A stretch of 64,000 nucleotides of DNA from Coriobacteriia bacterium. GTDB lineage: Bacteria; Actinomycetota; Coriobacteriia; Anaerosomatales; JAAXUF01. Of this stretch, positions 3,664 to 54,072 are shown piece after piece. The notes under the pieces were generated by a model. The model ran no database searches. It was not told the origin of the DNA and was given only the letters and a program-made list of their open reading frames with translations. The position numbers and the translations under genes are program-made. The DNA lies in assembly GCA_038245725.1 (NCBI GenBank), contig JBBRSD010000009.1, forward strand, positions 2,918 through 66,917, given 5' to 3'. Position 1 is the stretch's first letter. Every line of letters starts with the position of its first letter.

Positions 3664-3688
3664 CCCTACGGAAGGAAGAGGAACCAGA

Positions 3689-3910
3689 ATGACGACCCAC
3701 TCGCTCGATGCAAAGGGCATGCGCTGCCCGCAGCCGATCCTGAAGATTACCGCGATGCTGCCGCAGGTCGCTCCCGGCGATGTGCTCGAAGTCTCCGCCG
3801 ACTGCGCGACGTTCGAGGAGGACGTTCGCAAGTGGTGTGACCGCATGAACAAGACGCTTCTCGCCGTCACCAAGGACGGCGACGTGACCGTCGCTCAAAT
3901 CCAGTTCTAG
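3689..3910 (+). CDS. TusA/SirA-family sulfur-carrier protein
   Basis: 73 aa. LDAKGMRCPQPILKI carries the CPxP active-site motif typical of TusA. GGAAGAGG RBS upstream of ATG 3689. Confidence 0.85.
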   Translation: MTTHSLDAKGMRCPQPILKITAMLPQVAPGDVLEVSADCATFEEDVRKWCDRMNKTLLAVTKDGDVTVAQIQF

Positions 3911-13947: not shown

Positions 13948-16863
13948 TCACACGATTTCGGCCGCATCGGCCGACGCCCCCTCGGATGAGTCCACCGAAC
14001 CGCCTGCCCGTTTCCTAGCAACAACCACGCCGCCGCCCAACAGCACGAGCGCGAGAACGAACGCCACGGCACTGACGCCTGCACCCACGCCCAGACCCGG
14101 CGTCGAATATCGCAAGGTAAGCTGGTGCGAGCCCGCTCGTACCGGAATGCCGATGAAGCCGAGATTCGCCCGAACGACACTCGCCGAGCGACCGTCGATA
14201 GTGGCCCTCCAGCCGCTGCTGTACGGCACGCTCAGGAAGAGCAGCCCGTCGCGCTTCGCCGAGAAGTTCGCGCGGACGTCGTCCCCGTTCACGTGAACGT
14301 CGTGGAGTGACTCTTCGCGCAATGCCGCGACACTTTCGGCGTAACCCTTCATCGGCACGGCGTAGACCTTCAGCGCCTGATATGTGTAGACGCCCGCCAG
14401 AGTTGGGCGGACGAACGCGGCCGTTGTACCTTCCGCCGAGTAGCCCAAGTTGACGAGCTGCGACTGGTCGCCCCAGAAATAGTTGTTGCTTGGGGATTCG
14501 TTGCGCTCGGTCTTGCGCGCACCGCCCGTGTCGTACACGAGCGTGATGGTCTGCGGCTGAACGACCTTGCCGTCGGCTTTCCAGTATTCCGCCCTCGCCG
14601 CGGCGGATGTCGACGGCTGAGGCAGAGGGAGATTGCGGGCCTTGGGCGACTCCTTGCGATACGTGAAGCCGACAAAGTCGACGTAGAGTTCGGAATCGGG
14701 CACGGCATTGAAGTGCAGCTCGAGCTTGCGCGACAAGGCCAGCGTTCGAAACCGGTGGTTCGCGGTGTCGATCTCGACCGCTTTGGTCGGCGTGACCGAG
14801 AACGGCAGGTCGAGGACGGGAAGGCGGCTGGCGGCTGCGGGAAGCGACACGGGTGTGCCGGTGTCGAGCACCGCGCTCTGAAGCAGTGTCTGCTGTCGCT
14901 CGAGAGGAGTCATGGCGTCGTACTGGGCGCGAGAGACGCCCGAGTGGTAGACGTAACCGAGCGGCAGCGCGTAGCGGTTCTCATAGACGGTGCTGGCCCC
15001 TGAACGCGCGAACGGCGCGAACCCGTAGGGCACATACGCGGCACCGGCATTCGGGGCGATGTAGTACTTGACCGCGTTCAGCGTGAGAAGAGCGGCACGT
15101 TCGTCGAACCCGTTGAAGTCGAAGGAGAGCCGCATCGGCCGATTGTCGAGCTTGCGCAGGTATTCCGAAACGCCGGCATTGAGCACCGAGTAGTAGAAGC
15201 TCGTGCCATCGTAGCCTTGAACGAGTGGGTCGTTGGACGCGGTGACGCCCAGGTCGCTGCCGCGGGCGTCGCGCTGTTTGTCGACCCGGAAGAATCCGTC
15301 CCCCGGTAAACCCGCCGCGAGAGAGCCGGCGTTCACCTGGAAGAGATGGAGAACGCCGCCGAGCGGTTCGAATCGCTTGAGATAGTTGGCGCCGTGCCGG
15401 CTGTAGAGAACTGCGCCGTTGGCGGCGATGTTGAGGACGAGCAGCGCCACGACGCCGTATCGGAACCATCCCATCGCCCGCCCGCGAAGCCTCTTGTCCG
15501 GGCCGTCTTCGTGCGACTTGGCGCTTCGGTCAGCTCGTTGCTTCGCCCAGGACTCGAACGCCAGCGTCGCCCACGTCAGTAGGCCGATGGCGAGCGCTGG
15601 TGAGGCCGCGAGTGCCTGATGCCTCGTACCGAACGCAAGCACGAGCGCGCCGTACACGAGCAGGCTCGTGAGCATCGCGATGAGCTCGCGACGAGAAAAG
15701 GGCTTCGGGTCGGACAGCAGCACCGCCGCACCCGCAGCGAGGAAGATCCCCCACGTGAAGATGAATCGGTAGCTTAGGAACGAGACCCCGTTGAACAGCG
15801 ATCCGAAGAACGGAAACGCCAGGAAGATGAAGTACGCAGCGATCATGACTTTGATGGTGAGATTGCGCCCGCGTCGCATGAGCAGCGGAGGAAACAGCAG
15901 AAAGCCCAGCACCGGGTAGCCTTCGTACGCTGAGTTCGTCCCCGGCAGCGACGACATGAGGCTCATAAGGTAGGACCGGTACGTCCCGATGCTCGCGAAG
16001 AGCCCGATTGCGTGCTGCCCCATCGCGCGCGAACTGCCGAACACCGCGAGTACCACGGGCACGACGCTCACGGCCGCCAGAGCGGTCCCCAGCAGGTAGA
16101 ACCCTGCCGTCTTCGCCGCGACGGAGCCGAAGCGCTTCCAGCGATCCTCGGGAGAGCTCAGCTCGAAGTAGCGCACGACCGCGTAGAGCACTGCCACGAA
16201 CGTAAGCTGGTAGAAGAAGTAGAAGTTACTGAATGCCGAGAGGAACACGCCGAGTACAAGGAGGTACGGGCGCCGCCCATGCAGCACCCGCTCGATGCCG
16301 AGAAGCATCAGAGGGAAGAAGACGATCGGGTCTGCGAAGTAGGGATGCCTGAAGGCGCTGAAGAGCGCGAACGTCGTGAATACGTACATCAGCGATCCCG
16401 CACTGGCCGCCAGTGGTTTGGCGGCCATCGAACGCAGGTAGAGGTACGCGAGTGCTCCGGCAGCGAAGAGGCGCACGAAGAACAGCATCAGGTATGCGAG
16501 TTCAAGGTAATGCATGGGGAATACGAGGCTCACTATCGCGAACGGGTCGAACACGTAGAACGCCAACGTCCCCAGCGTGTCGGCGCCAAGGCCGAGGTTC
16601 CACGTCCACTGGGGAATGCCGGCAAGCGGGTGGTGAAGAAACGCTCTCACTATGGTGTTGTAGAAGTAGAGCGCCGGGAAGTGCTGGGCCATGCCGTCGA
16701 GCCACCACACGTTCGACTTGTGATAGAGCGGCAGGTACCAGAACACGAGGGCTCCGGCGAGTGCGAAGAGCAACGAGAAGCCGAGTGCACGGGTGGCACG
16801 CAGACGCGACGTGCTCGGCTGCCCGGGCGTAGGCGATGTGGGACCGGCTGTCGTCAACCGCAC
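13948..16863 (-). CDS. YfhO-family polytopic membrane protein (putative GT-C-type glycosyltransferase), paralogue 1
   Basis: 971 aa. More than 10 N-terminal TM helices, a large extracytoplasmic C-terminal domain and a terminal TM anchor. Collinear similarity to 50320-53184. Adjacent divergent GT2. Confidence 0.8.
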   Translation of the reverse strand: MRLTTAGPTSPTPGQPSTSRLRATRALGFSLLFALAGALVFWYLPLYHKSNVWWLDGMAQHFPALYFYNTIVRAFLHHPLAGIPQWTWNLGLGADTLGTLAFYVFDPFAIVSLVFPMHYLELAYLMLFFVRLFAAGALAYLYLRSMAAKPLAASAGSLMYVFTTFALFSAFRHPYFADPIVFFPLMLLGIERVLHGRRPYLLVLGVFLSAFSNFYFFYQLTFVAVLYAVVRYFELSSPEDRWKRFGSVAAKTAGFYLLGTALAAVSVVPVVLAVFGSSRAMGQHAIGLFASIGTYRSYLMSLMSSLPGTNSAYEGYPVLGFLLFPPLLMRRGRNLTIKVMIAAYFIFLAFPFFGSLFNGVSFLSYRFIFTWGIFLAAGAAVLLSDPKPFSRRELIAMLTSLLVYGALVLAFGTRHQALAASPALAIGLLTWATLAFESWAKQRADRSAKSHEDGPDKRLRGRAMGWFRYGVVALLVLNIAANGAVLYSRHGANYLKRFEPLGGVLHLFQVNAGSLAAGLPGDGFFRVDKQRDARGSDLGVTASNDPLVQGYDGTSFYYSVLNAGVSEYLRKLDNRPMRLSFDFNGFDERAALLTLNAVKYYIAPNAGAAYVPYGFAPFARSGASTVYENRYALPLGYVYHSGVSRAQYDAMTPLERQQTLLQSAVLDTGTPVSLPAAASRLPVLDLPFSVTPTKAVEIDTANHRFRTLALSRKLELHFNAVPDSELYVDFVGFTYRKESPKARNLPLPQPSTSAAARAEYWKADGKVVQPQTITLVYDTGGARKTERNESPSNNYFWGDQSQLVNLGYSAEGTTAAFVRPTLAGVYTYQALKVYAVPMKGYAESVAALREESLHDVHVNGDDVRANFSAKRDGLLFLSVPYSSGWRATIDGRSASVVRANLGFIGIPVRAGSHQLTLRYSTPGLGVGAGVSAVAFVLALVLLGGGVVVARKRAGGSVDSSEGASADAAEIV

Positions 16864-17030
16864 TCCTCGTTTCCGCGGGCTTCAGCCAGCAGTCTAGACC
16901 TTCACGAGCCCCGTGTGTCTCATCGAATGACCCAACCCACGTACCAAGGTGCTCGAGCGCGCAAAACGGGTGATACACTTGCCTCGCATTTCCCCTCTCA
17001 GCCGCCGTTCCGCCTCCTCGAAAGGCCAGC

Positions 17031-18029
17031 GTGGACGCTCCGTTCGGCGACACGAAGATAGGCGTCGTCATCCCGGCGCACAACGAAGCCGAACACATCG
17101 GCGAGGTGATCCGCGGACTTCCCGAGTGGGTCTCGGCGATTCTGGTCGTCGACGACGTCAGTGATGATGAGACCTGCGCGGTCGTGAAGGCCTTGGCAGA
17201 TCCACGCGTCAAGCTCCTGCGCCATGCCGAGAACACCGGCGTCGGTGGCGCGATGGTCACCGGCTACCGGGCCGGCATCGAGCTGGGCTGCGACATCCTT
17301 GTGAAGATGGACGCCGACGGGCAGATGGCATCCTCGGACCTCCCCAGGCTCATCCGGCCGCTGGTCGAGGGAAACGCCGAGTACACGAAGGGCAACCGGT
17401 TCTACGTCATCAACGCGAATCGGACGATGCCACGGACCCGCAAGCTCGGCAGTGTGATCCTCACCTTCATGACGAAGATGGCCAGCGGCTACTGGCACAT
17501 CTTCGATTCCCAGTGTGGCTTCACCGCGATGCGTTCTCACCTGCTGAAGATGATCGACCTTGATGCCATCGCGCACGATTACTTCTTCGAAAACGACATG
17601 CTCATCTGGCTCAACACGGCGGATGCGCGAGTCGTGGACGTTCCCATCCAGACTCTGTACGGAGCCGAGGTCTCAGACGTTCGTATCGGCCGGGTGGTGT
17701 GGTCGTTTCCGCCTCGGCTGATCCGCGGTTGGTTCTTCCGGGTCGCGCGCAAGTATCTGCTCATGGACTTCGGCGCGATCGGTGCCCTTGGGGTTCTCGG
17801 CACGGGGCTCGCAACGTTTGGCGCGGCGTATGGCGGTTACCGGCTCGTGCTCGCGAACGTCACGGGCGTCCCCACGACGACCGGCACCGTGATGTTTGCG
17901 GTCTTGCCGCTCATCGTCGGCATTCAGTCCGTCCTCCAGGGGTTCATCATGGAGGTCTCGGCCTCGCCCGGCGCCGAGGAGACACGCAGCTACGTCCACC
18001 GGCTTATTGACTCCGGGGATCTCGAGTAG
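17031..18029 (+). CDS. GT2 glycosyltransferase with C-terminal TM helices (GtrB/CsbB-like polyprenyl-phosphate sugar synthase)
   Basis: VVIPAHNEAEHI...VVDDVSDDET...KMDADGQM (DxD) with two C-terminal TM segments. Divergent from YfhO paralogue 1. Confidence 0.85.
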   Translation: MDAPFGDTKIGVVIPAHNEAEHIGEVIRGLPEWVSAILVVDDVSDDETCAVVKALADPRVKLLRHAENTGVGGAMVTGYRAGIELGCDILVKMDADGQMASSDLPRLIRPLVEGNAEYTKGNRFYVINANRTMPRTRKLGSVILTFMTKMASGYWHIFDSQCGFTAMRSHLLKMIDLDAIAHDYFFENDMLIWLNTADARVVDVPIQTLYGAEVSDVRIGRVVWSFPPRLIRGWFFRVARKYLLMDFGAIGALGVLGTGLATFGAAYGGYRLVLANVTGVPTTTGTVMFAVLPLIVGIQSVLQGFIMEVSASPGAEETRSYVHRLIDSGDLE

Positions 18030-19426: not shown

Positions 19427-20272
19427 TCAGCGAACACGCACCTTGTTCGCGTACTCGACGCCGTTCACAAGGAACGGCTGATCGACACTGTTGAGCGGGT
19501 CGGCCGGGTCGAAATCGAAGATGTTCGGCGTGCCTCGGTCGGCGTAGAGCGAGACCGCCAGCCTCGAACTCAGTGGAAGCGGATCAAGCGGGACCACAAC
19601 GCCCGTACTCTCACCCGAACGAACGTGTGCGAGCCCGATCCGCTGACCTTGGCCGCCATCCTTGTCGATACGGACGACTACCCACGCCGCTCCCGGTGCC
19701 GACACTCGCGAGATCAGAAGCGACTTCGACGCTCCGATCTGGTCGTCTGCGACGAGCGCGACCTTAGATGCGTCAACTGGGATCCCATACTGGCGCACCG
19801 CCACGACCGCAGCGAGTTCCCTGCCGCCGACGATGATGGGCCGATCAGCGCTTTGCGTCTTGCTCATCGGGTCGAAGTCAAACGTGCCTCGGGTGCCGCG
19901 GTCGGCGTACAGCGTCACGATGACCTGCGGGGTCTTGAGGTTCTCCAGAGGAATAGCAACGTCGCGCGACTCGCCTGAGAGAACGAACGACGTCGCCAGC
20001 TGGTCGCCCGGCTGCCCTCCCACATCGGCGTTGACGACGAGCCACGCATCGTCAGGGGCGAGCACGCGTTTGATGTTGAGCTGCTCGACTCCGATCTGAC
20101 TCGCAGAAACCTCGAGTTGCGCTTTGCTCGGCGACGCCACATAACCCAACAACTTCGCTTGCTGCGCGATCTGGCTGTTGGAGTTCACGCAGCCGGACAT
20201 GGCGACAACAGCGATCGCCGACAGTGTCAGACCTGTGCGGGAGAATCGCTTCATTGGTGGGCGCGCTTTCAC
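19427..20272 (-). CDS. Lipoprotein with two tandem copies of the same unassigned domain
   Basis: Lipobox VAMSGC. The repeats contain [14 protein letters not shown]...[11 protein letters not shown]...[15 protein letters not shown] and [14 protein letters not shown]...[11 protein letters not shown]...[15 protein letters not shown]. The GTG start overlaps the copA stop (GTGA). Confidence 0.65.
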
Positions 20273-23200
20273 GCCGCCGCCACAGGTACTTCAGGTTGAG
20301 AAGAGGGTGCAGGTGCGAACTTGGGCTTGAAGCGCCGCAGCAGAAGGGAGTTCGTCACCACAGAGACCGATGAGAACGCCATAGCCGCGCCCGCGATCCA
20401 AGGGAACGGTGAGAGCAGCCCAACTGCGGCCACCGGAATGAGCACGGTGTTGTAGCCCAGCGCCCAGACGAAGTTCTGGCGTATCTTGCGCATGGTCCGG
20501 CGCGATAGTTCGATCGCGGTCACGACGTCGCGCAGGTCGTTCTTGATGAGCACGATGCCGCCGGTCTCCATCGCGACGTCCGTGCCAGCACCCATCGCTA
20601 TGCCCACGTCGGCCTGCGCGAGCGCTGGCGTGTCGTTGATGCCGTCACCGACCATCGCGACGATGAGCCCTTCGGCCTGCAGCTTCGCGACCTCCTCGGC
20701 TTTGTGCTCGGGGAGCACCTCGGCGAGGACCTGTGTTGCGGGGATGCCCACCAGCTTCGCGATCGCCTCGGCCGTGCGGCGGTTGTCGCCCGTGATCATG
20801 TAGACCTTCACGTCGCCGCTACGGAGGCGTCTGACAGCTTCGGCCGAGTTCGGCTTGAGCGTGTCTGCGACCGCGATGAGCCCTGCGAGCTTCTGCCCGT
20901 TGACGCCAACGAGCATCACGGTCTTGCCCTCGCTCTCGAGCTGAGCGATGCGCTCTTCGAAAGCCCCGATCTCGATGCCCTCGCGCGCCATGAGCTTGCG
21001 GTTGCCGAACGCGACGCGCATGCCGGTCACGACGCCTTCGACGCCGTGACCCGGAATCGCCGAGAACCCCTCGACCTCCGGTATCGCGATCCCGTCGGCC
21101 TTGGCGCGCGCCATGACCGCCTCGGCCAGCGGGTGCTCGGAGTTCTTCTCGAGCGCCGCAGCGAACGTGAACATGCGCGCGGTGTCGTGGCCCTCGGCGA
21201 GTTCGATGTCGGTGACCTCGGGCTTGCCGTGCGTGAGCGTGCCGGTCTTGTCGAAGACGATCGCCGAGATCTTGTACGCGGTCTCAAGCGCGTCGCCGGA
21301 CTTGATCAGGATGCCGTTCTCGGCGCCTCGGCCCGTGCCGACCATGATCGCCGTTGGCGTGGCGAGCCCGAGCGCACATGGACACGCGATTACCACGACG
21401 GCGATGCCGGCGAGCAGCGCGGCAATCCACCAGCCGTTGATCGAGGCGGCCATGAGAATCGGCTGGAGGAGCGCGAAGGAGCCCGTGGGGTCCGGCTGCG
21501 TCCCGAAGATGAGCGGGCCGGCGAAGGCCCAGAACAGGAACGTCAACACGGCCGCAACGATGACCGTCGGCACGAAAACGGCGCTGATCCGATCGGCGAA
21601 GCGCTGCACGGGCGCCTTGCTGCCCTGCGCCTCCTCGACCAGGCGCACGATCTGCGCGAGCGCGGTGTCGGCTCCAACCTTCGTCGCGCGAAACGTGAAC
21701 GATCCGAGCTTGTTCGTGGTCGCGCCGATGACTTGATCACCGGCGTTCTTTTCGACCGGAATCGGCTCTCCGGTCAGCATCGACTCGTCGACCGCGCTGC
21801 TACCGGACATGACGAGGCCGTCGACCGGCACCTTCTCGCCCGGACGCACGACGATGAGGTCACCGACGACGACCTGCTCGATGGGCACGTCGAGCTCTTC
21901 TCCCCCACGCACGATGCGCGCCGTCTTTGCAGCCAGGCCGATCAGCTTCTTGATCGCATCGCTCGTGCGGCCCTTCGCCCGAGCCTCAAGCAACTTGCCG
22001 AGAAGGACGAACGTAATGAGCAACGCGCTCGTCTCGTAGAACGACGGTTCCATCTGGACCGCCGGGACGAACGTAGCGGCAACGGAATAGAAGTACGCCG
22101 CCGAGGTACCGATGGCGACGAGTAGATCCATGCTGCCGCTCAGCCGTTTGATCGCGTGGAATGCTCCCCGGTAGAAGCGCCAGCCGGCGACGAACTGGAC
22201 CGGAGTGGCGAGCGCGAACATGAGGTACTTGGAGACCATCATCGGATTCCACGCACCGCCGACGGCGCTCGCCAGCCACTCGGAAATCTTCAGCGGCACG
22301 AGCGTCATGAACGGCGGAATCATCGCGATCACGACGAGCGGAATCGAGAAAGCCAGCGCGAAGAAGAACATGTGTACTTCGGTCTGGTACGCCTGTGCCT
22401 GCGCTTCTGCCTGCACGTCGACCTTCTCGGAACCAAGAGCTAGATCGACCTTGACGGTCGCGCCGTACCCCGCGCCCTTGATCGCGCTGATGATGTCGTC
22501 GACGCCCACGACCTCCGGGTTGAATTCGACGATGCCGGTGTTCGTCGCAAGGTTCACGCTGACGCTCTCGACGCCATCAATCTTGCCGACGACCTTCTCG
22601 ATGATCGCCGAGCAGGACGCGCACGTCATGCCCGTGATCGCGAGTGTGATGCGACCGGCGGGGCCGGCGGGACGCGAAGCTGCCGCGCTCACGTCACCCA
22701 CCGACGACAGCAGCGTCGCCGTGTAGCCGATGCTTCCGACCTTCTCGGCGATGGCGCCGGGGTCGAGCACGTGAGGATCGTAGGTTGTCGTCAGCCGCTC
22801 CAGCGCCAGATTGACCGTCGCCGAGCCGATGCCCTCGGTCTTGCCGAGAACCTTTTCGATAATCGCCGAGCAAGACGCACAGGTCATGCCACCCACGGCG
22901 AACGTGGCTTCGGAGGTTGCCGACATCGGGGCCGTTTCGGCAGGAGCCGCTGGTTCGGCTTCCTCGGGAACGACCGGGCAGGCGGTGGGTTCGGGTGCCG
23001 CGAGAGACGCGGGCGAGGGCGACGCCGCGAGCTCGGGTGCGGGTACGGGCTCTGGCTCGGGCGGCGGTGCGGGTGTGCGTGCAGGCATGGGAGCCGGCGC
23101 CGAGGTCTCGGCTGCTGGCGCGGGAGCCGGTGTGGGCGCAGACGCGACTGGGCCGACGCCCATCCTGGCGACGCGGGCCGCCACCGCGGCCGAAGCCGCC

Positions 23201-24288
23201 TTGGCGGCCTCTACGGCTGAGGAGGGTGCGGCTTCTGCCTCGGCCTCCGAGGTGTTCGCGCCGACCGCCGAAACAGCTGCAGCCATAGCTGCGACAGGTG
23301 CGGGCACGGGCATTGGTGCGGGCGTTGACGGCGGCTCGACGCGAGCCGCCTCAACCGACGCGGGCCCCATCGGCGCTGCAGCCGGGGCGCTTGCAGCCTG
23401 CTGAGATGCGGCGGGTGCTACGGCGCGGACGGCCTCGCCGGGCAGCGTGCTCACGATCGCCATTCCACGCACGAATGGAGTCCCCGGCGTGAAGCCTGCG
23501 GCCCTCACGGCGCTGGAAAGATCGCTGAGAGGCACCTCGCGATCGAGGTACACGGTCAGTGACTTGTCGCCAGCATCACCTTCGGCAGCAGCCACACCGG
23601 CGACCTGACGCGCTTCCATTGTCACGAGCTTCTCGCAGGCCGCGCAGTGCATGCCTTCAGAGCTCAACTTGAGACGTCGATACGAGCCGGTATGTGCCGG
23701 TGGCTGCGCGGCGACAGGAGACTCAACCGGTTTCGGGGAGACGACCGGTGCCGGTGGCTCGGCGTCGACCGGCGGTGCTGGCAGCTCGACCGCAACCATT
23801 GGTGCGACCGCGACCGGCGAAATCGCCGGCTCGGCGACCGTGGGTGCCGGCGGAGCGCCGACGTCGGGCTCGCGCTCAGCTGTCGGCTTGGAGAACATCC
23901 TCGCTGCCACAGGCACGGCGGACGCCGGCTCAGAGGGAATCGGATCCGGGAGTCCTCCGCTGTGGAGAATGAGCTCCACGTTGCCGATCTCGGTGCGGTC
24001 GGCCTCGATGGGCAACTCGACGGCGATGGCGGCGTCAGTTCCGCTCAGTACGGTCGGCGCGCCAGGCGAGAAGCCCGCTCGCACGATTGCAGTCAACATC
24101 GCGTCTACGGGAACATCATGAGATGCATAGATGACGACCTGACCGTTCGAGTGGTTGGCGAGTACCGCTTCGATTCCGGGAATGTCGCTGAGCCAGGCGG
24201 TCAGGACTTGCTCGCAGGAGTGGCAACGCATTCCGTCGACTCGCAGGCGCACAACGGCGCGTTCGTTACTCGACGGCATCTGAATCAC
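20269..24288 (-). CDS. copA: Cu(I)/heavy-metal P1B-type ATPase with four N-terminal HMA domains
   Basis: [21 protein letters not shown] and [13 protein letters not shown] motifs are GMRCHSC, GMHCAAC and 2x [14 protein letters not shown]. 1339 aa because of two long Ala/Pro-rich linkers. Confidence 0.95.
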
Positions 24289-24324
24289 CTGCCTGATTGA
24301 TGGTTGTGTGCGTCAGCATAACCC

Positions 24325-24894
24325 CTACTCAACTACAATCTTGCCGAATACCATGCTCATGCCGCACGAGAACGAGTACGTCCCCGCCTTCAATGCGGGA
24401 AGTCGGACGACCCTCGGGCCCGCCGAGAGATCCTCGGAGAACCCAAGGTCCGACGAGATGACCTGCGCCGTGCAGCCTCCACCTTGGCCAAACGTGATCT
24501 CAGCCGGAACGCCAGCCTTCAACTTGATGATGTTCGGGGAGTACGTAGTGCCGACCTTCACGCCTATCGCCTGAATGCCCCCACTGAGTAGTGCGTTCCC
24601 TTCCACGGGTGCGCCTGTCACCCCACTCTTCGTAGAGGCACTCGAACCGCCGCCGCAACAAGCGCAGCCACTGCCCCCCGCCGTTCCAGGAGCACAGGTT
24701 CGCTTTCCAGCCGCGCTGGCACCGGCAACGGGGGTGGCCCGGCCCACCGCGACGGCGATACCCGGTGATACGGCCTGCACGGTGCGTGCGGAGGCCAACT
24801 TGTACGCCCCGAGAAACGCCGCCATGAGCAGGCCCGCGATGATCACGAGTTGCAAAGCGTTGTTCTTCTTAGCTGCGCTCTCAGTCATTTCCAT
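24325..24894 (-). CDS. Membrane-anchored cupredoxin-like domain protein with a Cys-rich linker
   Basis: N-terminal TM, then CAPGTAGGSGCACCGGG. The C-terminal domain is ...IIKLKAGVPAEITF...GGCTAQV...ALKAGTYSFSCGMSMVFGKIVV (Cupredoxin_1-type signature). Confidence 0.7.
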   Translation of the reverse strand: MEMTESAAKKNNALQLVIIAGLLMAAFLGAYKLASARTVQAVSPGIAVAVGRATPVAGASAAGKRTCAPGTAGGSGCACCGGGSSASTKSGVTGAPVEGNALLSGGIQAIGVKVGTTYSPNIIKLKAGVPAEITFGQGGGCTAQVISSDLGFSEDLSAGPRVVRLPALKAGTYSFSCGMSMVFGKIVVE

Positions 24895-24912
24895 ACTCCT
24901 TTGAGTATCGGG

Positions 24913-26208
24913 TTACGAGAAGAAACCGCCAAGCGCCAGCCCCACGATTGCCGCGGCAACCAGGCCGCCTGCCAGCAAGACGAGCTGGACAGCCGTGAGG
25001 CCGAGCAGGACCGGCTGCGGAGCAGCAGCGGCCTTCTTACCCTTCTTGTTCGGTGCTGCCGCCGGCGCACGGCGCTTGGCAACGAACAGCGCCGTCGCGG
25101 TGACGACGAGCGTCAACGTGAGCCACAGCAGGGGTGAGCCTGGAACGCCTCCGGCGCTCGTCGGTCCTCCGATGGCGCCAACCGCCAGCGTGCCCGACAT
25201 CATCCCCATGCCACATGTCATCGTATACGTCCCGGCCTTGGTCGGCGGTATGTCGACCTTGGTCACGGCATCATCGGCCAGCGGGACGCTGACGCCTAGC
25301 TGCGGCAACACCAGTTGATTCGAACAGGACACGCTTTCTTGACGGTCGACTACGAGCCTCACGGGCTTGTCGGCGGGGATGTTGACGGTCGTCGGAACGT
25401 ACTGCGTGTTCTTGATGACGAGCGGGACCTCGATCACGCCGTCGGCAGCGGTGGTGTATCCCGCCGTTGAGGCCGTCGCGCCGCCGCCGATCACAGCCGT
25501 CTTGATGGTGGTGAACGTCACCGGCGAGCCGATGAGCGTGGCTGCGCGGTTGATGAAGACGAGGCCGAACAGCATGACCACGACCGCCAAGCCTACGGTC
25601 AGCTGATGTTTCCAGTTCTTCGGGATCATGCTCGAAGCGACGCCGAAGCCCAACATGAGCGGCGCAGTTCCCAGCCCGAAGGCGAGCATCGCAACGCCGC
25701 CGCCCAGGATGCTACCGGTGCCGGCAGCCGCGAGCTGAGCCGCCTGGAGCGGCGCGCATGGCATGAGTCCCGTCAGCAGCCCGAAGGAGATCGGCGTCGC
25801 AATCGAAGTCACACCGTGCTCGGCGTCGGACTTGGCCCTCCGGCGGAGCTTCGAGAGTGCCGTCACAAGGAACTTCGGCGGACGAGGACTCAGGCGCGCC
25901 GCCCACGGCACGCGACCAGTCATCCCCAATCCGAGGACGACCATGAAGCCGCCCGCCGCGAACATGATCCACGGCCGGACGCCGTTCAGGTTGAATGCCG
26001 AGCCGACCGCGCCGAGCAGCAAACCGACGAGTACGTAGCTGACGATCTTGGCGCCTTGATAGGCAAGGTTCGGCACGATCTTGGTGGTCCAATGATCGTC
26101 TTCATCGCCTTTGACGGCGTAGGTGACGACCATGGGGCCGCACATCGAGATGCAGTGGACGCTCGTTGCGAGGCCCAGCGCGAACATCGACAGGAATAGG
26201 GCTATCAC
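24913..26208 (-). CDS. DsbD_2-like transmembrane protein fused to a cupredoxin-like domain and a C-terminal TM pair
   Basis: SVHCISMCGPM (HCxxMCGP) and LMPCAPL motifs in a 6-TM core. Then ...VNIPADKPVRLVVDRQESVSCSNQLV...TKAGTYTMTCGMGMMSGTLAV. GTG 26208 follows a GAGGAG RBS; ATG 26250 is an alternative start. Confidence 0.75.
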   Translation of the reverse strand: MIALFLSMFALGLATSVHCISMCGPMVVTYAVKGDEDDHWTTKIVPNLAYQGAKIVSYVLVGLLLGAVGSAFNLNGVRPWIMFAAGGFMVVLGLGMTGRVPWAARLSPRPPKFLVTALSKLRRRAKSDAEHGVTSIATPISFGLLTGLMPCAPLQAAQLAAAGTGSILGGGVAMLAFGLGTAPLMLGFGVASSMIPKNWKHQLTVGLAVVVMLFGLVFINRAATLIGSPVTFTTIKTAVIGGGATASTAGYTTAADGVIEVPLVIKNTQYVPTTVNIPADKPVRLVVDRQESVSCSNQLVLPQLGVSVPLADDAVTKVDIPPTKAGTYTMTCGMGMMSGTLAVGAIGGPTSAGGVPGSPLLWLTLTLVVTATALFVAKRRAPAAAPNKKGKKAAAAPQPVLLGLTAVQLVLLAGGLVAAAIVGLALGGFFS

Positions 26209-26323
26209 GATGAAAGACTCCTCGTGTGCGGGGGCGGAACGGACGCCCACGATTCGGGGCGCACGCCAATAGCCGCACTAAGGCGCGCGCGAACACGCAA
26301 CCTGGTGCGGACACGAGAAAGGA

Positions 26324-26686
26324 TCAGACTCGGAAGCGCTCTCCGCGAGGACGTACGGGCGGAGGCGGTGGATTGCACGCTCGAGCCAGCACCGGGCGGC
26401 CGGTGACCTGCGGTGCGAGCAGTGCGACAGCGCCCGCGAAGGCCGCAAGGAGCATCAAAAACAGAGCGTCGATGCCGCTCGGGACTGTGCCCGCGGGGGC
26501 GGAGTCGAACGCCCACAGGCCTCCGCAAAGAGACGAGAAGTGCGGACCGTTGAACGGGACGAATCCCATTGCACCCGAGTTCATCGTGCAGCCGACCATG
26601 TGGCACGTCGGAACCGCGATCGCGACGATCGCGACCACGATAGCAAGCGGCAGGGCGAGCCTGCGCATGGTAGCGAATGCGGACAT
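26324..26686 (-). CDS. Hypothetical 2-TM protein with a CHMVGCTM Cys/His/Met motif
   Basis: TM1 LALPLAIVVAIVAIAV, motif PTCHMVGCTMNSG, TM2 IDALFLMLLAAFAGAVALLA. It is first in the minus-strand metal cluster. Competing ORFs on both strands are Arg-rich and look spurious. Confidence 0.4.
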   Translation of the reverse strand: MSAFATMRRLALPLAIVVAIVAIAVPTCHMVGCTMNSGAMGFVPFNGPHFSSLCGGLWAFDSAPAGTVPSGIDALFLMLLAAFAGAVALLAPQVTGRPVLARACNPPPPPVRPRGERFRV

Positions 26687-26794
26687 GGACGCCTTTCCGA
26701 AACCTTCGGCGCAAGTGAACCAACAACTTTCGTGCCGGGCGGTCTGCCGGGACAGGGTGTGCCAAGAGGGCAGCCGCTGGTACGTCGTTCGGAG

Positions 26795-27208
26795 CTATAT
26801 CGACTGTCCGAGCTGACGGTCGGGGCAGAAGCACAGCGAGACCGAGTTGATGCAATATCGCAAACCGGTGGGCTCGGGCCCATCGCCAAAAACGTGGCCG
26901 AGATGACCACCGCATGCAGCGCACCGCACCTCAACCCGGTGCATCCCAAGCGTGTCATCGACGTGCTCGGTGACCAGACGGGGTTCGATCGGCGCGTAGA
27001 AACTCGGCCACCCGCAGCCCGAGTGGAACTTCGTCTCGGAGGTGAACAGCTTCGTCCCACAACCGGCACACTCGTAGTAGCCGGGTTCGGTCAGATCCGT
27101 GAGCGCGCCCGAGTACGCTGGTTCCGTGCCCGCGCGGCGTAGCACGCGGAACTCCTCAGGCGTGAGCATCTCGCGCCATTCATCGTCGGAGCGATCGATC
27201 CTGACCAT
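26795..27208 (-). CDS. msrB: Peptide-methionine (R)-S-oxide reductase
   Basis: EEFRVLR..GTE, CAGCGTKLF, GCGWPSF, CAACGGHLGHVF and RYCINS motifs. ATG 27208 lies 7 nt after GGGGAGG. Confidence 0.92.
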   Translation of the reverse strand: MVRIDRSDDEWREMLTPEEFRVLRRAGTEPAYSGALTDLTEPGYYECAGCGTKLFTSETKFHSGCGWPSFYAPIEPRLVTEHVDDTLGMHRVEVRCAACGGHLGHVFGDGPEPTGLRYCINSVSLCFCPDRQLGQSI

Positions 27209-27306
27209 GCGCACGCCTCCCCAGGCTGCGGCGATCTTCCCTCGGCGAGTGTACTACTTCGACAGAGCAGGTCGCGCATCCTGAGAAGGAATGGCACATT
27301 CGGCGA

Positions 27307-28026
27307 TCAGAACGCCGAGCAGCCAGCCCCGCCAGTCGAGCTCCCGCCCCGGGAGATCAGTCGCGTGCGCCCGGCCTCGCTCAGACCGAAGGCGTCGATC
27401 TCGCGGTCGAGCTGCACGCGGGTTCCGTCGCCAGCGACGTAGCCGTTGACGCGGGCCGCGGCGCTGCTCTCGCGGATCGCGGCCTCGTCGCCACCGAACA
27501 TCTCGGCGAACTCGCGTCCAAGCACACGGTCGTTTCGCAGGTAGTATTTCTGGTGGTAGTCCTCGGCGAGCCAGAAACGGCTCAGCAGCTCGATGCGAGT
27601 GGCGAGTTCGCCGACGCCGCGTTTCGCCGCGAAAACGGCCGCCCGCTCCTGGGCGACGGCAAGTTGCTCGGAGTCACGTGCGAGCACAAGCGAGGCGTAC
27701 TGCGCCTTGTGCGCCCGCCATGTGGGGTTGTGCGACTCGAACGCAAGATCGACGAGATCGGCATAGCGAACCACGCTCGGGTCGAAATCGACCTGAAAGC
27801 ACTCGGTCTGATCGCCAAGCCCGTGATACGTGGGATTCTCGCGGTCGCCACCAGCGTAGCCGACCCGGGTTCTCCAGACTCCTTCGACGATCCCGAACCG
27901 GGCGTCAGGTGTCCAGAATCAACCCACGCCGAACGTAGTCGTGGCAAGGTTCGCAGGGGCAAGCGCGTCGAACGGCGGCGGTGACAGCGGCCGCACGGTC
28001 CGCCCCTGGCGGAGTGATTCGAACAT
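27307..28026 (-). CDS. msrA: Peptide-methionine (S)-S-oxide reductase with in-frame TGA (27919-27921) at the catalytic Cys position; candidate selenoprotein
   Basis: ATG 28026 has a GAGGAG RBS. My translation reads ...ATTTFGVG-TGA-FWTPDARFGIVEGVWRTRVGYAGGDRENPTYHGLGDQTECFQVDFDP...FWLAEDYHQKYY. It aligns with the MsrA GCFW active site and the GYxGGxxxNPTY and DYHQ motifs. The track shows only the 3' part (27307-27774). Confidence 0.8.
27877..27913 (-). promoter_or_regulatory. Putative bacterial SECIS stem-loop downstream of the msrA UGA
   Basis: The mRNA GACACCU-GACG-CCC-GGUUC-GGG-AU-CGUC-GA-AGGAGUC starts 6 nt after the UGA. It forms about 14 bp of imperfect stem. The apical loop GGUUC starts 20 nt after the UGA and begins with G. 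Confidence 0.45.
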
Positions 28027-28080
28027 GTCGTAGCTCCTCTCGGTATACCGATAAGGAGTGCAAATGCCGCACCAGCTGAG

Positions 28081-36604: not shown

Positions 36605-38047
36605 ATGAGAAGGATCGCGATATCTGGCCTGGCGGTGCTCGCGCTGTGTCTGGCCCTTGCGACTCCGGCGCTCGCCATCACCCAAGGGGTGACCGGTGTC
36701 GTGAGGAGCATCACCACTGGCAAGGTCATCGCCGGTGCGGTCGTCACGAAAGGCACCGTCAAGGTGACCACGAATGTGTACGGCGTCTACGCGGTCAGCG
36801 CAGCTGTTGGCAGGTACACCCTGAGCATCACCAAGCCCGGCTACCTCAGAACCTATCAGATGGCATCGGTCGTCGCGGGCAAGAAGACCTACGTCAACTG
36901 GTATCTCACGAACAAGTATCCAACGAACGCCGTTCCTGTCCGAAGCCTGACGATCCTGGGCTGGAACGACCTTGGGATGCACTGCGATCAGGACAGCTAC
37001 AAGTACATGTGCATTCTTCCGCCTTACAACACCCTGCACGTGCAGCTCTTCGCCGGCGAGGGCGGGGCTCCGAGCGGCGTCACCGTGAGCTACTACTTCC
37101 CGAAGAAGACGAACTCTGCGCTGAGCACGGACTTCTGGACCTACGCGAAGAACTTCGATAGCAGCTGGTCCGCCACGCCCAACGTGGGAATCTCCGGCAC
37201 GAGGCTTTCCGGTCAGATGGTCCGCGACGCCGCGGGCAAGGGCTGGGTCGCCAAGGGCATTCCGGTCACCCCCTACGACGACGACGGCACATGGGATCCG
37301 TACGCCCCGGCGACCGTCGTGGTCAAGAACTCCTTGGGCACCGTGCTTGGCGCGACCAAGGTCGTCACTCCCGTATCGACAGAGATGACGTGCTCGAACT
37401 GCCACAGCGGCTCGAACGCCGCCCAAGTCGCTCAAAACATCCTCACTGCGCACGACGCCGATCAGGGAACGACACTCCTTTCGGATGCGAACGCGGGTCA
37501 CCCTCACGCCTGCTTCGAGTGCCACGCCGACAACGCGCTGGGAAAGCACGGACTTGCCGGCGTCCCGAGCCTCTCGCTTGCAATGCACAAGAAGCACGAC
37601 GGGAAGATCGCGAACACGACGGCTGGGTGTTCCAACTGCCACCCAGGCCCGAAGACCAAGTGCCTGCGCGGCGTGATGGCACGCGCTGGAAAGAGTTGCG
37701 TGAGCTGCCACGGCACGATCAGCACCGTCTGGAAGTCGATCAGCACCGGTCGCCGGCCGTGGGTGGACGAGCCCAAGTGCAGCACGTGTCACGGCGCGAA
37801 GCACGCCGAGAACGCCGGCAAGCTCTACCGCGACTCTTTGCTCACCAACTCACTCACGAGCGACATGAACAACCGGATCTACTGCGAGGCGTGCCACAAC
37901 AGCACGCATGCCGAGTACGTCTCGAGAATCGCTTCTGACGCCATCGTGCCGAAGACGGCTCAAGGCAACAGTTACTGGATCTACAACTGCAAGGTCTGCC
38001 ACAAGAGCGGCGGATTCACCTTCGCGGGTCAGTTGATGCATCGCTAG
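36605..38047 (+). CDS. Secreted heptahaem c-type cytochrome with N-terminal CarboxypepD_reg-like domain
   Basis: Signal peptide ...LATPALA|I. Seven CxxCH motifs (CSNCH, CFECH, CSNCH, CVSCH, CSTCH, CEACH, CKVCH), all in the C-terminal ~200 aa. GGAGGAG RBS. Confidence 0.9.
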   Translation: MRRIAISGLAVLALCLALATPALAITQGVTGVVRSITTGKVIAGAVVTKGTVKVTTNVYGVYAVSAAVGRYTLSITKPGYLRTYQMASVVAGKKTYVNWYLTNKYPTNAVPVRSLTILGWNDLGMHCDQDSYKYMCILPPYNTLHVQLFAGEGGAPSGVTVSYYFPKKTNSALSTDFWTYAKNFDSSWSATPNVGISGTRLSGQMVRDAAGKGWVAKGIPVTPYDDDGTWDPYAPATVVVKNSLGTVLGATKVVTPVSTEMTCSNCHSGSNAAQVAQNILTAHDADQGTTLLSDANAGHPHACFECHADNALGKHGLAGVPSLSLAMHKKHDGKIANTTAGCSNCHPGPKTKCLRGVMARAGKSCVSCHGTISTVWKSISTGRRPWVDEPKCSTCHGAKHAENAGKLYRDSLLTNSLTSDMNNRIYCEACHNSTHAEYVSRIASDAIVPKTAQGNSYWIYNCKVCHKSGGFTFAGQLMHR

Positions 38048-50319: not shown

Positions 50320-53184
50320 CTAGCTGCGGGATTCTCGGCGACGACGGGTCGCGGCGAGCGCAAGCAGCATCGCGCTGAGCAGCAGCGCCACGCCAGCTAC
50401 GAGCGACCCGAGCGCGAAGCCGGGCGTCGTGTAGCGCAGCTCGATCGCGTGCTTACCGGCCGTGACCGGGATACCGGTGAACGCCGTGTTGGCGCGCACC
50501 GTGCGCGCGGGCTTGCCGTCGACCGTCGCGCGCCATCCGCTCGAGAACGGGATGCTCAGGAAGAGCAGACCGGCTCTCGGCGAGTCGACTTCACCGGCAA
50601 CGGTGTTGTTGCCCACGCGTATCTCGCGCATCGGGTTGGCGCGCAGCGGGGCGACTCGCGACACGTATGAGGCCATCGGCACCGCGAGGACCTTGAGGCT
50701 TCGGAACGTGAGCGTGCCAGGCACTTCGAGACGCATCGTCGCAGTCGTCACGACCGATCGCTGGTATCCGAGGTTCACGGTCTGCGTGCGGTTGCCCCAG
50801 TAGTAGGGGTACGCCGGCGTCTGCCACAACTCCGACTTCTCCGGTCCGCCCGCGGTGTACCACGTCTTGACCTGCACCGGCGTCCAGAACAGGCGGTTCT
50901 TGGCCTTGAGCGCGGCGACCGCCGCCGGAGTCGGATTCGGGCCAAGCAGGTAGTCCCTGCGCTCGAGCGGCGAACTCGCGACGTCGTCGAACCCGGCAAG
51001 CTGCACGTAGAGCTCAGCGTCGACCGGTGCCGAGAAGCGCAGGTCGATTCGGCTGTTGGCTGCGAGCTTGACGATGCGACCAGCCGCCAGATCGACGTCG
51101 GCACCCTTAGTCGCGACCACCGAAAACGGCACATCGACGACGGTCACGCTCGGCACGACCGACGGTAGCGAGATGCCCGAGCCATCCTCTATGACGGCGC
51201 CCTCGAGCATCGCTTGCTGGCGTGCGATGATCGGCAGTGCCTCGAACGCGGCGCGGCTGATGATGTGGTCGTACACGAAGCCGAGAGGTAGCGAGTACCG
51301 GTTCTCGTAGAGACCACCCTTGGACGACTTCTTCACCAGGTCGTATCCGTAGGGCACGTAGCCCGATCGCTTGCCGGCGGCGGTGTAGTACTTCACGGCG
51401 GTGATCTCGTCGAGAGCGGCACGGTCGTCGAAGCCCGAGTAGGAGAACGACGACCACCCGCCGCGGATGTCGTTGTCGACGATGAAGTTGGTCACATTGC
51501 CGTTCAGAAGGGAGAAGTAGTAGCTCGTCGGGCGAAAGTGCTGTACGAGCGCGTCGTTGTAGAAGAGCGGTTCGCTGTCCTGAACGCGGTAGAACGTGTC
51601 GTCTGAGATGCCGGAGGCAAGCGCACCGGGCGCCTTGAGATACGTGTTGAGAACCTGGCCCACCGCAAGGTTGTCTCGCAGGCTATTGGCGTACCGCGCG
51701 TCGTGCGTGAGACCGCCCGCCGCGACGATGCCTGCGACAAGCAGCGCGAACACCGCCCAGCGCGTAGGTGGGACGTTCCAGTCTCGCTGCTTGCTTCTCG
51801 GCGTCGGATTCCGCGCCTCGCGCCGCGACTCGCGAACGGTTCCGCCCCGGCGGGCGAGCAACCATTCGAGCACGAAGACGCCCCATGTGAGCAAGCCGAT
51901 AGCGAAGGGCATTGTGAGCACGGCGTTGATCGGGACGTCGCTCATGAACACGCACGCCCACATCACGACGTAGGCAGCGAGCATGGCGCCGAGCTCCCGG
52001 CCCGAGAACGCGTTGTCATCGGCGAGCAGAAGACCTACCGCGAGCGCGATGAAGAGGCCCCACTCGAAGCCGTAGCGACCGCTCGGGAACGTGAAGCCGT
52101 TGTAGACGGCGCTCACGACCGGCAAGCCGAGCAGGAACGGGAAGGCAGCGAGCATGACCTTGAGCGCAGTGTTGCCGCGGCGCATGAACACCGCGGGTAT
52201 GACCACGAAACCAAGCGGAGCGAAGCCGAGAACGGTGGAGTTGGGACCGATCGCCGTCGATACGAGCGCGGCAAGATAGCGGCCATAGTCCTGCAGCGAA
52301 AAGAACAGGTGTGGCGCGAATGCGATCTGCCTGCGGACTGTCGTGAAGATGGCAGCCGCGCTCGGGAGGAGCACCGGCCCGGCGAGCAGGATGCCCAGCG
52401 CGACGCTGCCGGCGATCCGCAAGCCATCGGGTGCGAGCCGGCGCCATCGATCCTCTCTCGGCGTGGTCTCGAAGTACCGGGCGATCACGTAGATCACGAG
52501 TGTGAGCGCTTCCATATAGAAGAAGTAGAAGTTGCCCACAGCGCCGAGGAAGACCGCGACCACGAGCACCCAGGAGCGTTTGCGTTCGAGGGCGTACTCG
52601 GCCCCCAACAGCAGCAGCGGGAAGAGTGCCAGAGCGGTCGCGAAGATCGGGTGGCGGGTGGACGAGTACAGCGTAAACGTCGCGAGGCAGTAGATCAGGC
52701 TTCCCGCGAGCGCCGAGATGGGCCGCGCGCCCATCTTGCGCAGATACATCGCCGAGAACACGCCCGCGCACGCGATGCGCACGATATAGACGACCGTGTA
52801 GGCGAGCTCCAGCGACCGCATCGGGAACAGAAGGCTGATCGGCACGAAGGGATCGCCGACCACATAGAAGGAGAGGGTGCTGATCGTATCGGCGCCGAGC
52901 CCCAGCTGCCACGACCAGAACGGGAAGCCCTGGCCCGGGTTGTGGAGGAACTGCCGGACGATCTGGTTCAGGAAGTACATCGACGGGAAGTGTTGCGCGG
53001 CGCCGTCGGGCACCCACACGAGCGACTTGTGGTAGATCGCGAAGTAACGGAAGGCGACCGCGAACACTGCCGAGAAGATCACGCTGCCGATCGCGACGTT
53101 TCGCGCTGCGCGCCACTGCTGGGACGGTTGCGGTGCGACCGCTTCCGAAGCGGTGGGTGGTGGCGCCCACGAGCGATCAGTCAC
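50320..53184 (-). CDS. YfhO-family polytopic membrane protein, paralogue 2
   Basis: Collinear with 13948-16863 (for example IYHKSLVWVPDGAAQHFP vs LYHKSNVWWLDGMAQHFP; C-terminus LLFLSIPFSSGWRATVDGKPA vs LLFLSVPYSSGWRATIDGRSA). GTG 53184 overlaps the GT2 stop (GTGACTGA); ATG 53247 is an alternative start. Confidence 0.8.
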   Translation of the reverse strand: MTDRSWAPPPTASEAVAPQPSQQWRAARNVAIGSVIFSAVFAVAFRYFAIYHKSLVWVPDGAAQHFPSMYFLNQIVRQFLHNPGQGFPFWSWQLGLGADTISTLSFYVVGDPFVPISLLFPMRSLELAYTVVYIVRIACAGVFSAMYLRKMGARPISALAGSLIYCLATFTLYSSTRHPIFATALALFPLLLLGAEYALERKRSWVLVVAVFLGAVGNFYFFYMEALTLVIYVIARYFETTPREDRWRRLAPDGLRIAGSVALGILLAGPVLLPSAAAIFTTVRRQIAFAPHLFFSLQDYGRYLAALVSTAIGPNSTVLGFAPLGFVVIPAVFMRRGNTALKVMLAAFPFLLGLPVVSAVYNGFTFPSGRYGFEWGLFIALAVGLLLADDNAFSGRELGAMLAAYVVMWACVFMSDVPINAVLTMPFAIGLLTWGVFVLEWLLARRGGTVRESRREARNPTPRSKQRDWNVPPTRWAVFALLVAGIVAAGGLTHDARYANSLRDNLAVGQVLNTYLKAPGALASGISDDTFYRVQDSEPLFYNDALVQHFRPTSYYFSLLNGNVTNFIVDNDIRGGWSSFSYSGFDDRAALDEITAVKYYTAAGKRSGYVPYGYDLVKKSSKGGLYENRYSLPLGFVYDHIISRAAFEALPIIARQQAMLEGAVIEDGSGISLPSVVPSVTVVDVPFSVVATKGADVDLAAGRIVKLAANSRIDLRFSAPVDAELYVQLAGFDDVASSPLERRDYLLGPNPTPAAVAALKAKNRLFWTPVQVKTWYTAGGPEKSELWQTPAYPYYWGNRTQTVNLGYQRSVVTTATMRLEVPGTLTFRSLKVLAVPMASYVSRVAPLRANPMREIRVGNNTVAGEVDSPRAGLLFLSIPFSSGWRATVDGKPARTVRANTAFTGIPVTAGKHAIELRYTTPGFALGSLVAGVALLLSAMLLALAATRRRRESRS

Positions 53185-53956
53185 GCGAGCCGTCCGGAGT
53201 CGAAGCGGACTCCTCGAACGCGGGGGCCGCAATCTTGCCACGCCCACCTGTCAGGCGGGCGACACCGAGCGAGGTCGTGCGCACGAGCGCCTCGAAGACG
53301 ATGGCACGCGATATCTTGGACTGGCCATGGCGGCGGTCGACGTAGGAGATCGGCACCTCCACGATGGCCGTGTCGATATCGCGCAGGCCGGCGAGCAGTT
53401 CGATGAGGAAGCTGTAACCCTCGGATCGAATGTCGGCGAAGGGCACGCGCGCCAAGGTCTCGGCGCGGTAGCAGCGGAAGCCGCTCGTGCAGTCGTGGAC
53501 CGGCGTGCCGACCATGATGCGGGCGTAGCCACTCCCCACGAAGCTCACCGCGCGCCGCACGGGACCCCAGTCGACGAGCGATTCCCCGCCATCGCAGTAG
53601 CGCGAGCCGATTGCGAGGTCGGCGCCCTGCTCGACCTTCTCGCGCAGGAACGCAAGCGAGCTCGGGTCGTGGGAGAGGTCGGCGTCCATGGTCGCCACGA
53701 TGTCGAAGCCGTGATCGATGCAGTACGCCATCCCCTCTTTCGAGGCCACCGAGTATCCGCGCTGACCGGTGCGGTGGATGACGTGGAAGCGCGGCTCGGC
53801 AGCGGCGATCTCATCGGCGAGAGCGCCGGTGCCATCGGGTGAGGCGTCATCGACGCAGACTACGTCGAGTTCCGGCTCGAGGGCGAGCAGCAGCTCGGCG
53901 AGCGCACGGATGTTGTCGGCTTCGTTGTAGGTCGGGATGACGACTGCGCAGCGCAT
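53177..53956 (-). CDS. Soluble GT2 polyprenol-phosphate sugar synthase (Ppm1/DPM1-like)
   Basis: VVIPTYNEADNI, CVDDASPDGT, TMDADLSHDP, GSRY. ATG 53956 follows GGGGGAG. The track ORF up to 54820 is an artefactual extension. Confidence 0.85.
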   Translation of the reverse strand: MRCAVVIPTYNEADNIRALAELLLALEPELDVVCVDDASPDGTGALADEIAAAEPRFHVIHRTGQRGYSVASKEGMAYCIDHGFDIVATMDADLSHDPSSLAFLREKVEQGADLAIGSRYCDGGESLVDWGPVRRAVSFVGSGYARIMVGTPVHDCTSGFRCYRAETLARVPFADIRSEGYSFLIELLAGLRDIDTAIVEVPISYVDRRHGQSKISRAIVFEALVRTTSLGVARLTGGRGKIAAPAFEESASTPDGSRD

Positions 53957-54072
53957 ACGAACTCCCCCGATCGATGGTCGGGAGTCACGGTACCTGTTCT
54001 GAGCCGCGCGTGCGAGTGCGAGGGGGCGCGCGACGCATGCGTGCGGGCGTCGCCAGTGTGCAGAAGCATGCG

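Follow-up and report, generated by a model that had tools for sequence, protein, structure and literature searches.

Introduction

Does the UGA triplet that interrupts an msrA reading frame in a Coriobacteriia genome end translation, or could it be read as selenocysteine (Sec)? The question arises from a 64-kb stretch of DNA (here called the window, meaning the whole stretch that was analysed), for which an original prediction had proposed a Sec-containing MsrA hidden by truncation in the ORF track. MsrA is among the experimentally verified prokaryotic selenoproteins, with the motif GUFWG/H (PMC13188914, PMC9312934), and as a bacterial selenoprotein the family has already been validated by experiment (PMC4333827, PMC13188914). 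For the enzyme of Clostridium (Alkaliphilus) oremlandii OhILAs (CoMsrA), Sec incorporation has been shown experimentally, and the Sec form is 20-fold more active than the Cys form (PMC4333827, PMC4479559).

Judged from sequence comparison, the window msrA would be a Sec-MsrA gene, in which a UGA at the position of the catalytic residue is followed by a SECIS-type insertion hairpin, and we give this reading a probability of roughly 0.85. The selenocysteine interpretation of the original prediction is thus supported, with corrections to the extent of the hairpin, to the description of the neighbouring genes and to the presumed rarity of Sec-MsrA.

Results

The msrA frame is interrupted once, at the catalytic codon

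The following features define the gene.

27307-28026, (-): full-length msrA coding sequence of 239 codons, with Sec proposed at codon 36 and the terminal stop TGA at 27309-27307
28034-28039, (-): Shine-Dalgarno sequence GAGGAG, 7 nt 5' of the ATG at 28026-28024, read from the sequence
27919-27921, (-): in-frame UGA, proposed to encode Sec36, where the G-[C/U]-F-W motif has its catalytic residue
27307-27774, (-): 155-aa fragment reported by ORF finders and gene callers, beginning at the first GTG past the UGA

Direct reading confirmed the predicted start, with the ATG at 28026 preceded at 7 nt by GAGGAG (28039-28034) and lying 54 nt past the stop of the preceding ArgZ-like gene. From there to 27307, the reverse strand translates as MFESLRQGRTVRPLSPPPFDALAPANLATTTFGVG*FWTPDARFG...GAGCSAF*, and the frame holds a single internal stop, the TGA at 27921-27919. 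As had been claimed, this stop falls exactly where MsrA proteins have the catalytic Cys of GCFW, since it aligns with the Cys column of the homologues, and conserved MsrA motifs lie on both sides: the Pfam PMSR domain (PF01625) matches the Cys-substituted product across the stop, over residues 30-166, with E = 1.8e-32 and 113.1 bits (cut-off 23.7). In the protein alignment A1, residues E75, E155, Y157, H158, Q159 and K160 are invariant, together with the AEDYHQKY block, and the G-C-F-W column is occupied by Cys in all full-length homologues but two, P0002 (Ser) and P0008 (printed as Trp).

The truncation noticed earlier in the ORF track was found again, the mechanical ORF list giving nothing at this locus beyond the 155-aa piece at 27307-27774. 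Public collections likewise hold the window msrA solely as this 155-aa fragment (P0003), which does not include the catalytic residue.

TGA prevails at the catalytic codon of the closest relatives

In a scan of species-representative genomes, 582 relatives were obtained, and codon states were read from the best 80 of the 582; the catalytic codon was TGA in 70 and TGT or TGC in 10, a TGA share that is biased because the query was a Sec-type protein and the 80 most similar loci were kept. Across these best 80 loci the frames are intact and the flanks conserved (...TATFAxG-U-FWGPDAxFG...). By record title, the TGA loci belong to Coriobacteriia, Planctomycetota, Chloroflexota, Deltaproteobacteria, Thermodesulfobacteriota, Bacillota, Nitrospirae, Synergistaceae, Spirochaetales, Myxococcaceae and others, and the archaeal and cyanobacterial members of the best 80 are all Cys forms. 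Additionally, TGA occupies the codon in all seven closest metagenome relatives (55-69% identity), and the more distant metagenome Cys forms (about 50% identity) carry TGT or TGC.

The alternation of Cys and Sec at the catalytic column, which the original prediction had proposed to look for, is therefore present both in the 70 TGA against 10 TGT/TGC of the best 80 loci and in the TGA, TGT, TGC and TCA states of the orthologues described below. It had also been proposed to look in close relatives for lesions elsewhere in the gene; no frameshift or stop at another position was found in the relatives examined, which favours the selenocysteine reading. The statement that Sec-MsrA forms are rare does not hold within the two-domain MsrA subfamily, where the closest relatives have TGA more often than any other codon.

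These genes are poorly represented at the protein level. About two thirds of the best 120 protein matches start past the GxFW motif, from whichever start codon comes next, and the full-length proteins among the same 120 carry GCFW. All five truncated proteins that were traced to DNA have TGA at the catalytic codon, the tracing having been made through the identical C-terminal sequence (P0010, P0018, P0021 and P0069) or by direct look-up (P0008). The DNA behind P0008 (L116:184-903; JGI 3300050372) is a 965-nt contig with this gene alone, and the public product prints Trp (GWFW) where the DNA reads TGA, evidently because the gene caller's code reads UGA as Trp. A gene code with UGA as Trp is accordingly a second route by which Sec-MsrA becomes mis-annotated.

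Several orthologues with matching gene order no longer carry TGA

In the window, msrA stands in the order purD, radical SAM, purE, pilin-like, ArgZ-like, msrA, msrB, small membrane ORF, DsbD/cupredoxin, cupredoxin and Cu-ATPase. The loci L112 and L113 show this order again, and L117 shows its downstream part, up to the second of the cupredoxin genes; the genes around msrA are recorded for L112, L114 and L117. Counted with these orthologues is L116, described above, in which the catalytic codon is TGA. The catalytic codon of L112 (6001-6720) is TGC, and CGA and GGA there replace the SECIS-type CGG and GGG. The MsrA of L112 has also lost the Cys of the C-terminal tail (...LGGTRGIR). In L117 the catalytic codon is TGT and the hairpin codons are intact, and in L114 (6106-6147) and L115 (ENA ERZ27256921, ERZ28653468) it is TCA (Ser), one base from TGA. 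L114 keeps the SECIS-type codons GCC CGG TTC GGG and has the upstream genes as in the window, with msrB displaced by an inserted block of ABC-2 transporter and two-component genes. The TCA form may be inactive as an enzyme, or it may have abandoned Sec very recently.

Given that orthologues now carry TGT, TGC or TCA, loss of Sec use does occur in this lineage, and L117 and L114 are recently converted genes. Their retained SECIS-type codons, which are a feature of these relatives and not of the window gene, resemble the remnant SECIS-like structures described in Cys homologues of FdhA and HesB-like proteins (Zhang et al. 2006, PMC1794560).

A conserved hairpin follows the UGA codon

Downstream of the UGA, the window RNA can form the following elements.

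27886-27906, (-): SECIS-type hairpin; the fold of the 27-nt stretch has -9.7 kcal/mol, and codon bias, covariation and a covariance-model match bear on it
27906-27903 with 27889-27886, (-): lower stem GACG/CGUC, then a 2-nt AU bulge
27902-27900 with 27894-27892, (-): core CCC/GGG
27899-27895, (-): apical loop GGUUC, starting 19 nt past the UGA
27872-27918, (-): longer outer stem, UUCUGGAC with GUCUGGAG, in the minimum-free-energy fold of the window alone and absent from the consensus structure of the relatives

The stem-loop proposed earlier at 27877-27913 is real and its GGUUC loop was correctly placed, but the conserved part is shorter, covering 27906-27886 and beginning 12 nt past the UGA. 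Like the bSECIS consensus, it is a stem-loop right after the UGA with an apical loop of 3-5 nt in which G comes first (GGUUC). The loop can be drawn as GGUUC, or as GUU closed by a G-C pair, with a CCCG/CGGG stem plus GACG/CGUC. The bSECISearch criteria are given as a loop of 3-9 nt, an upper stem of 4-16 bp, G at the first two positions of the loop, a distance of 16-37 nt from the UGA and an MFE of -7.5 kcal/mol or below (PMC13188914). The window element agrees with all four published constraints, namely loop size, loop G, spacing (19-20 nt) and MFE (-9.7 kcal/mol) (PMC13188914). The claimed compatibility with a bacterial SECIS is therefore borne out, both by these published constraints and by conservation at synonymous sites with covariation, as follows.

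Folding of the single sequence was considered as proof of a SECIS and rejected, with a z-score of -1.36 and 8% of synonymous re-codings folding equally well. Because the fold of the window alone is not significant, support for the hairpin rests on comparison with the relatives. For the codons GCC, CGG and GGG of the window, its own codon usage gives a joint probability of 0.009. Across relatives, GGG encodes the Gly at +9 in 69 of 71 Sec loci vs 1 of 10 Cys loci, the Cys forms having GGC or GGA there, and the further Cys-form metagenome loci listed all have GGC; GGC, GGT or GGA predominate among the other Gly codons in the same stretch of the Sec sequences. Of the 71 Sec loci, 69 have GCC or UCC as codon +6 and 68 have CGG or CAG as codon +7. 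Ser at +10 is written AGY in 27 sequences, with no UCN among the eight commonest codons.

The consensus hairpin consists of the CCC/GGG core, a (G/A)GUU(C/U) loop and a lower stem. Covariation is seen at two of its pairs: pair 19:31 is U-A in 31 sequences, G-C in 21 and G-U in 4, and pair 18:32 is C-G in 26, A-U in 9, U-A in 7 and U-G in 6. The covariation score reached 0.189 vs 0.079 in shuffles, none of 500 shuffles attaining 0.189, and was maximal at zero slide. Hairpin energies differ as well, with medians of -10.8 kcal/mol for Sec loci and -7.3 kcal/mol for Cys loci (Mann-Whitney p = 1e-4).

A covariance model (R1) was built from 69 Sec loci with the window excluded. Applied to the 64-kb window, it gave a single match, at 27880-27921(-), with 52 bits and E about 3e-11, which lies in the range of held-out Sec loci (48-60 bits). 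The converted genes scored 42.6 bits (L117) and 39.6 bits (L114), and the other Cys forms 9-35 bits. A search of Rfam returned no family for the element, the nearest match being a chance lncRNA (E = 8).

In the window hairpin, the covarying pair 19:31 is a G:A mismatch, and the lower stem is shifted and has a 2-nt bulge. The shifted lower stem (columns 16-18 with 34-36) was considered as a family-wide feature and rejected, as it showed no covariation above shuffles, and is taken to be confined to the window and some relatives.

The predicted protein is a two-domain MsrA with a tail Cys

Two further codons are of interest in the predicted protein.

27319-27321, (-): Cys236, in the Gly-rich C-terminal tail GGAGCSAF, a candidate resolving Cys
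27799-27801, (-): Cys76, which adjoins the invariant Glu75 and occurs throughout the clade of the window protein

Among solved structures, the 4LWJ group of chains ranks first as a relative (E = 6e-43, query residues 27-220), and 4LWJ is the selenoprotein CoMsrA, which has two domains and requires the helical one (PMC4333827). The alignment continues beyond the catalytic domain into the helical domain, reaching query residue 220 and chain residue 198, the CoMsrA helical domain being residues 145-209 (PMC4333827). The Pfam model of that domain (PF20939, MsrA_helical, 'Selenoprotein MsrA, helical domain') gave a weak match of 19.2 bits and E = 0.001, below the cut-off of 23.7. The window MsrA thus belongs to the same two-domain subfamily as CoMsrA, with a match spanning both domains, and shares with it a UGA-encoded catalytic residue in a G-U-F-W motif, at residues 35-38 of the window protein (U being the proposed Sec).

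The two proteins also differ. The N-terminus of the window protein is 20 residues longer (Sec36 vs Sec16 in CoMsrA), its motif is GUFWT and not GUFWG, and it has Cys76 and the tail Cys236, whereas CoMsrA has no Cys. MsrAs are classed by the number of their resolving Cys residues (PMC4479559), and CoMsrA, with no Cys residues, is of the 1-Cys type, with glutaredoxin and not thioredoxin as reductant (PMC4479559). The 1-Cys type has no Cys besides the catalytic residue, and with Cys76 and Cys236 the window MsrA falls outside it.

These features extend beyond the single sequence. The clade of the window protein is marked by GUFWT, Cys76 beside the catalytic Glu and a Gly-rich tail with Cys, which ends in GGAGCSAF in the window and in GxGC[S/A/P][L/I/V] in the relatives, and the GUFWG Sec-MsrAs of other phyla are mostly without any Cys. 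Among 85 N-truncated close homologues, 75 have a Cys in the last 14 residues. In E. coli and bovine MsrA, the resolving Cys lies within the Gly-rich C-terminal tail, which the GxGC motif of the window clade presumably resembles. The tail Cys of the window protein is likewise a candidate resolving residue. Both of the other enzymes rely on Cys for catalysis, are without the helical domain and show much weaker similarity to the window protein, in the catalytic domain only (E about 1e-17 to 1e-19).

The gene lies beside msrB and copper-related genes

The genes around msrA, and those farther off to which the original prediction referred, are as follows.

26795-27214, (-): msrB (SelR domain, E = 7e-49), directly downstream of msrA, with catalytic Cys (RYCINS)
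26324-26686, (-): membrane ORF of 120 aa with several Cys, after msrB
24913-26250, (-): DsbD-type membrane domain fused to a cupredoxin
24325-24894, (-): second cupredoxin
20269-24288, (-): 1339-aa Cu-type P-type ATPase with four HMA domains
164-3663: NiFe hydrogenase large subunit (DPCFGC) and HdrA-like flavoprotein/ferredoxin

The neighbouring msrB, glutaredoxin-like, HdrA and hydrogenase genes had all been described as using Cys. This stood for msrB (RYCINS) and for the NiFe hydrogenase (DPCFGC), but the hydrogenase and HdrA genes are about 24 kb away, and the ORF at 26324-26686, which had no Pfam match, was not recognisably glutaredoxin-like by eye. The order of msrA and msrB with copper genes suggests that methionine sulfoxide repair is linked to copper handling. 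Two DUF7282 proteins are also encoded in this msrA-msrB-copper gene run (20269-27214, (-)).

Elsewhere in the window, hydrogenase, HdrA-like and TusA-like genes occupy 164-3910, and the hydrogenase small subunit lies just beyond the left end, as seen in L118, a contig of the same organism that extends the window by about 1 kb. Two YfhO-family membrane paralogues of about 970 aa, each adjoining a family-2 glycosyltransferase, are found at 13948-18029 and 50320-54820. A 480-aa ORF at 36605-38047 has multihaem cytochrome c matches (c7, c3 and MtrC/MtrF-like domains) and adjoins HlyD-type and ABC-2 transporter genes.

Other explanations for the UGA codon

The UGA could also be what is left of a selenoprotein gene, if the lineage once made Sec-MsrA and the organism then lost Sec decoding, in which case translation would yield 35 residues and the gene would be in decay. 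In favour of such a loss, no Sec machinery was detected in the window: Pfam annotation of about 70 ORFs across the 64 kb revealed none of selA, selB and selD, and ARAGORN reported no tRNA-Sec in the window, where tRNA-Gly is the only tRNA, or in 118 fetched loci. The same-order orthologues that have left TGA for TGT, TGC or TCA also indicate turnover in the clade. A decaying gene fits poorly with the 239-codon frame, which carries no other lesion and has conserved residues on both sides of the UGA, with the retention of all SECIS-type codons, two of which have already changed in the TGC orthologue L112, and with TGA in seven of the seven closest metagenome relatives. An intact frame and intact SECIS-type codons make a recent pseudogene unlikely, and we hold the loss of Sec decoding in this organism to be improbable. 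Apart from msrA, the scan for in-frame TGA gave no real-looking second selenoprotein gene within the 64-kb window. Surveys have reported Sec decoding in Actinobacteria (PMC1794560, PMC5322559).

A further possibility is that the UGA is translated, but not as Sec, either through a reassigned code or through near-cognate read-through that inserts Cys or Trp. The Trp printed in the public gene call P0008 would agree with this, and in other systems the Sec pathway has been reported to insert Cys at UGA under selenium shortage. At least 12 Pfam-supported genes of the window, however, terminate at TGA with normal C-termini, among them the NiFe hydrogenase large subunit, which ends at TGA after DPCFGCATH.... 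UGA being a normal stop in the window genes, a reassigned code is unlikely; it would moreover need no conserved hairpin, and Trp in place of the catalytic nucleophile would inactivate the enzyme. Decoding of this UGA as anything other than Sec therefore appears very unlikely. Lastly, a sequencing or assembly error that turned a Cys codon (TGC or TGT) into TGA is scarcely credible. Metagenome assemblies do contain single-base errors, and the Logan contig could stem from the reads that also gave the window; against an error, this separate assembly, made from SRR19962014, shows the identical TGA and matches the window at 100% identity over 11,038 nt, 77 further loci (70 genome and 7 metagenome) have TGA at this codon, and the downstream codons carry a Sec-type and not a Cys-type signature.

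Discussion

Based on the conserved reading frame, the state of the catalytic codon in relatives and the comparative support for the hairpin, we propose that the window msrA encodes a Sec-MsrA, and a series of steps can be envisaged from the known bacterial mechanism. First, ribosomes would start at the ATG at 28026, and at the UGA (27921-27919) the hairpin at 27906-27886 would recruit SelB carrying Sec-tRNA(Sec), so that Sec would be inserted instead of termination taking place. In the resulting enzyme, Sec36 of the GUFW motif would attack methionine-S-sulfoxide and become a selenenic acid, which Cys236, in the flexible Gly-rich tail, probably resolves to a selenenylsulfide, and a thiol reductant would then reduce the latter. 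The role proposed for Cys236, as the residue that probably resolves the selenenic acid of Sec36, corresponds to that of the resolving residues in 2-Cys and 3-Cys MsrAs (PMC4479559).

The window gene, mis-called as a truncated ORF, adds a new member to a known selenoprotein family. The organism that carries it is likely a Sec user. The family and the mechanism being known, the only part that goes beyond prior description is the variant in which Sec is combined with a tail Cys. We put forward, as a proposition with about an even chance of being right, that a large uncharacterised Sec-MsrA clade, including Coriobacteriia MAGs and marked by GUFWT, Cys76 and the GxGC[S/A/P][L/I/V] tail, pairs Sec with a resolving tail Cys, that it would recycle through an intramolecular selenenylsulfide, possibly reducible by thioredoxin, and that TGA is the commonest state among the most similar two-domain MsrAs. 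Such recycling would differ from that of the one bacterial Sec-MsrA characterised so far, a 1-Cys enzyme dependent on glutaredoxin.

The scientific value of this case is modest, and its lesson for annotation is useful. About two thirds of the closest database homologues are truncated in the same manner as the window gene; therefore, Sec-MsrA is systematically under-annotated, and selenoproteome counts are too low for anaerobic phyla such as Coriobacteriia. For the family itself, the combination of Sec with a tail Cys would offer a natural experiment on the way in which a resolving Cys affects the recycling of a selenoenzyme.
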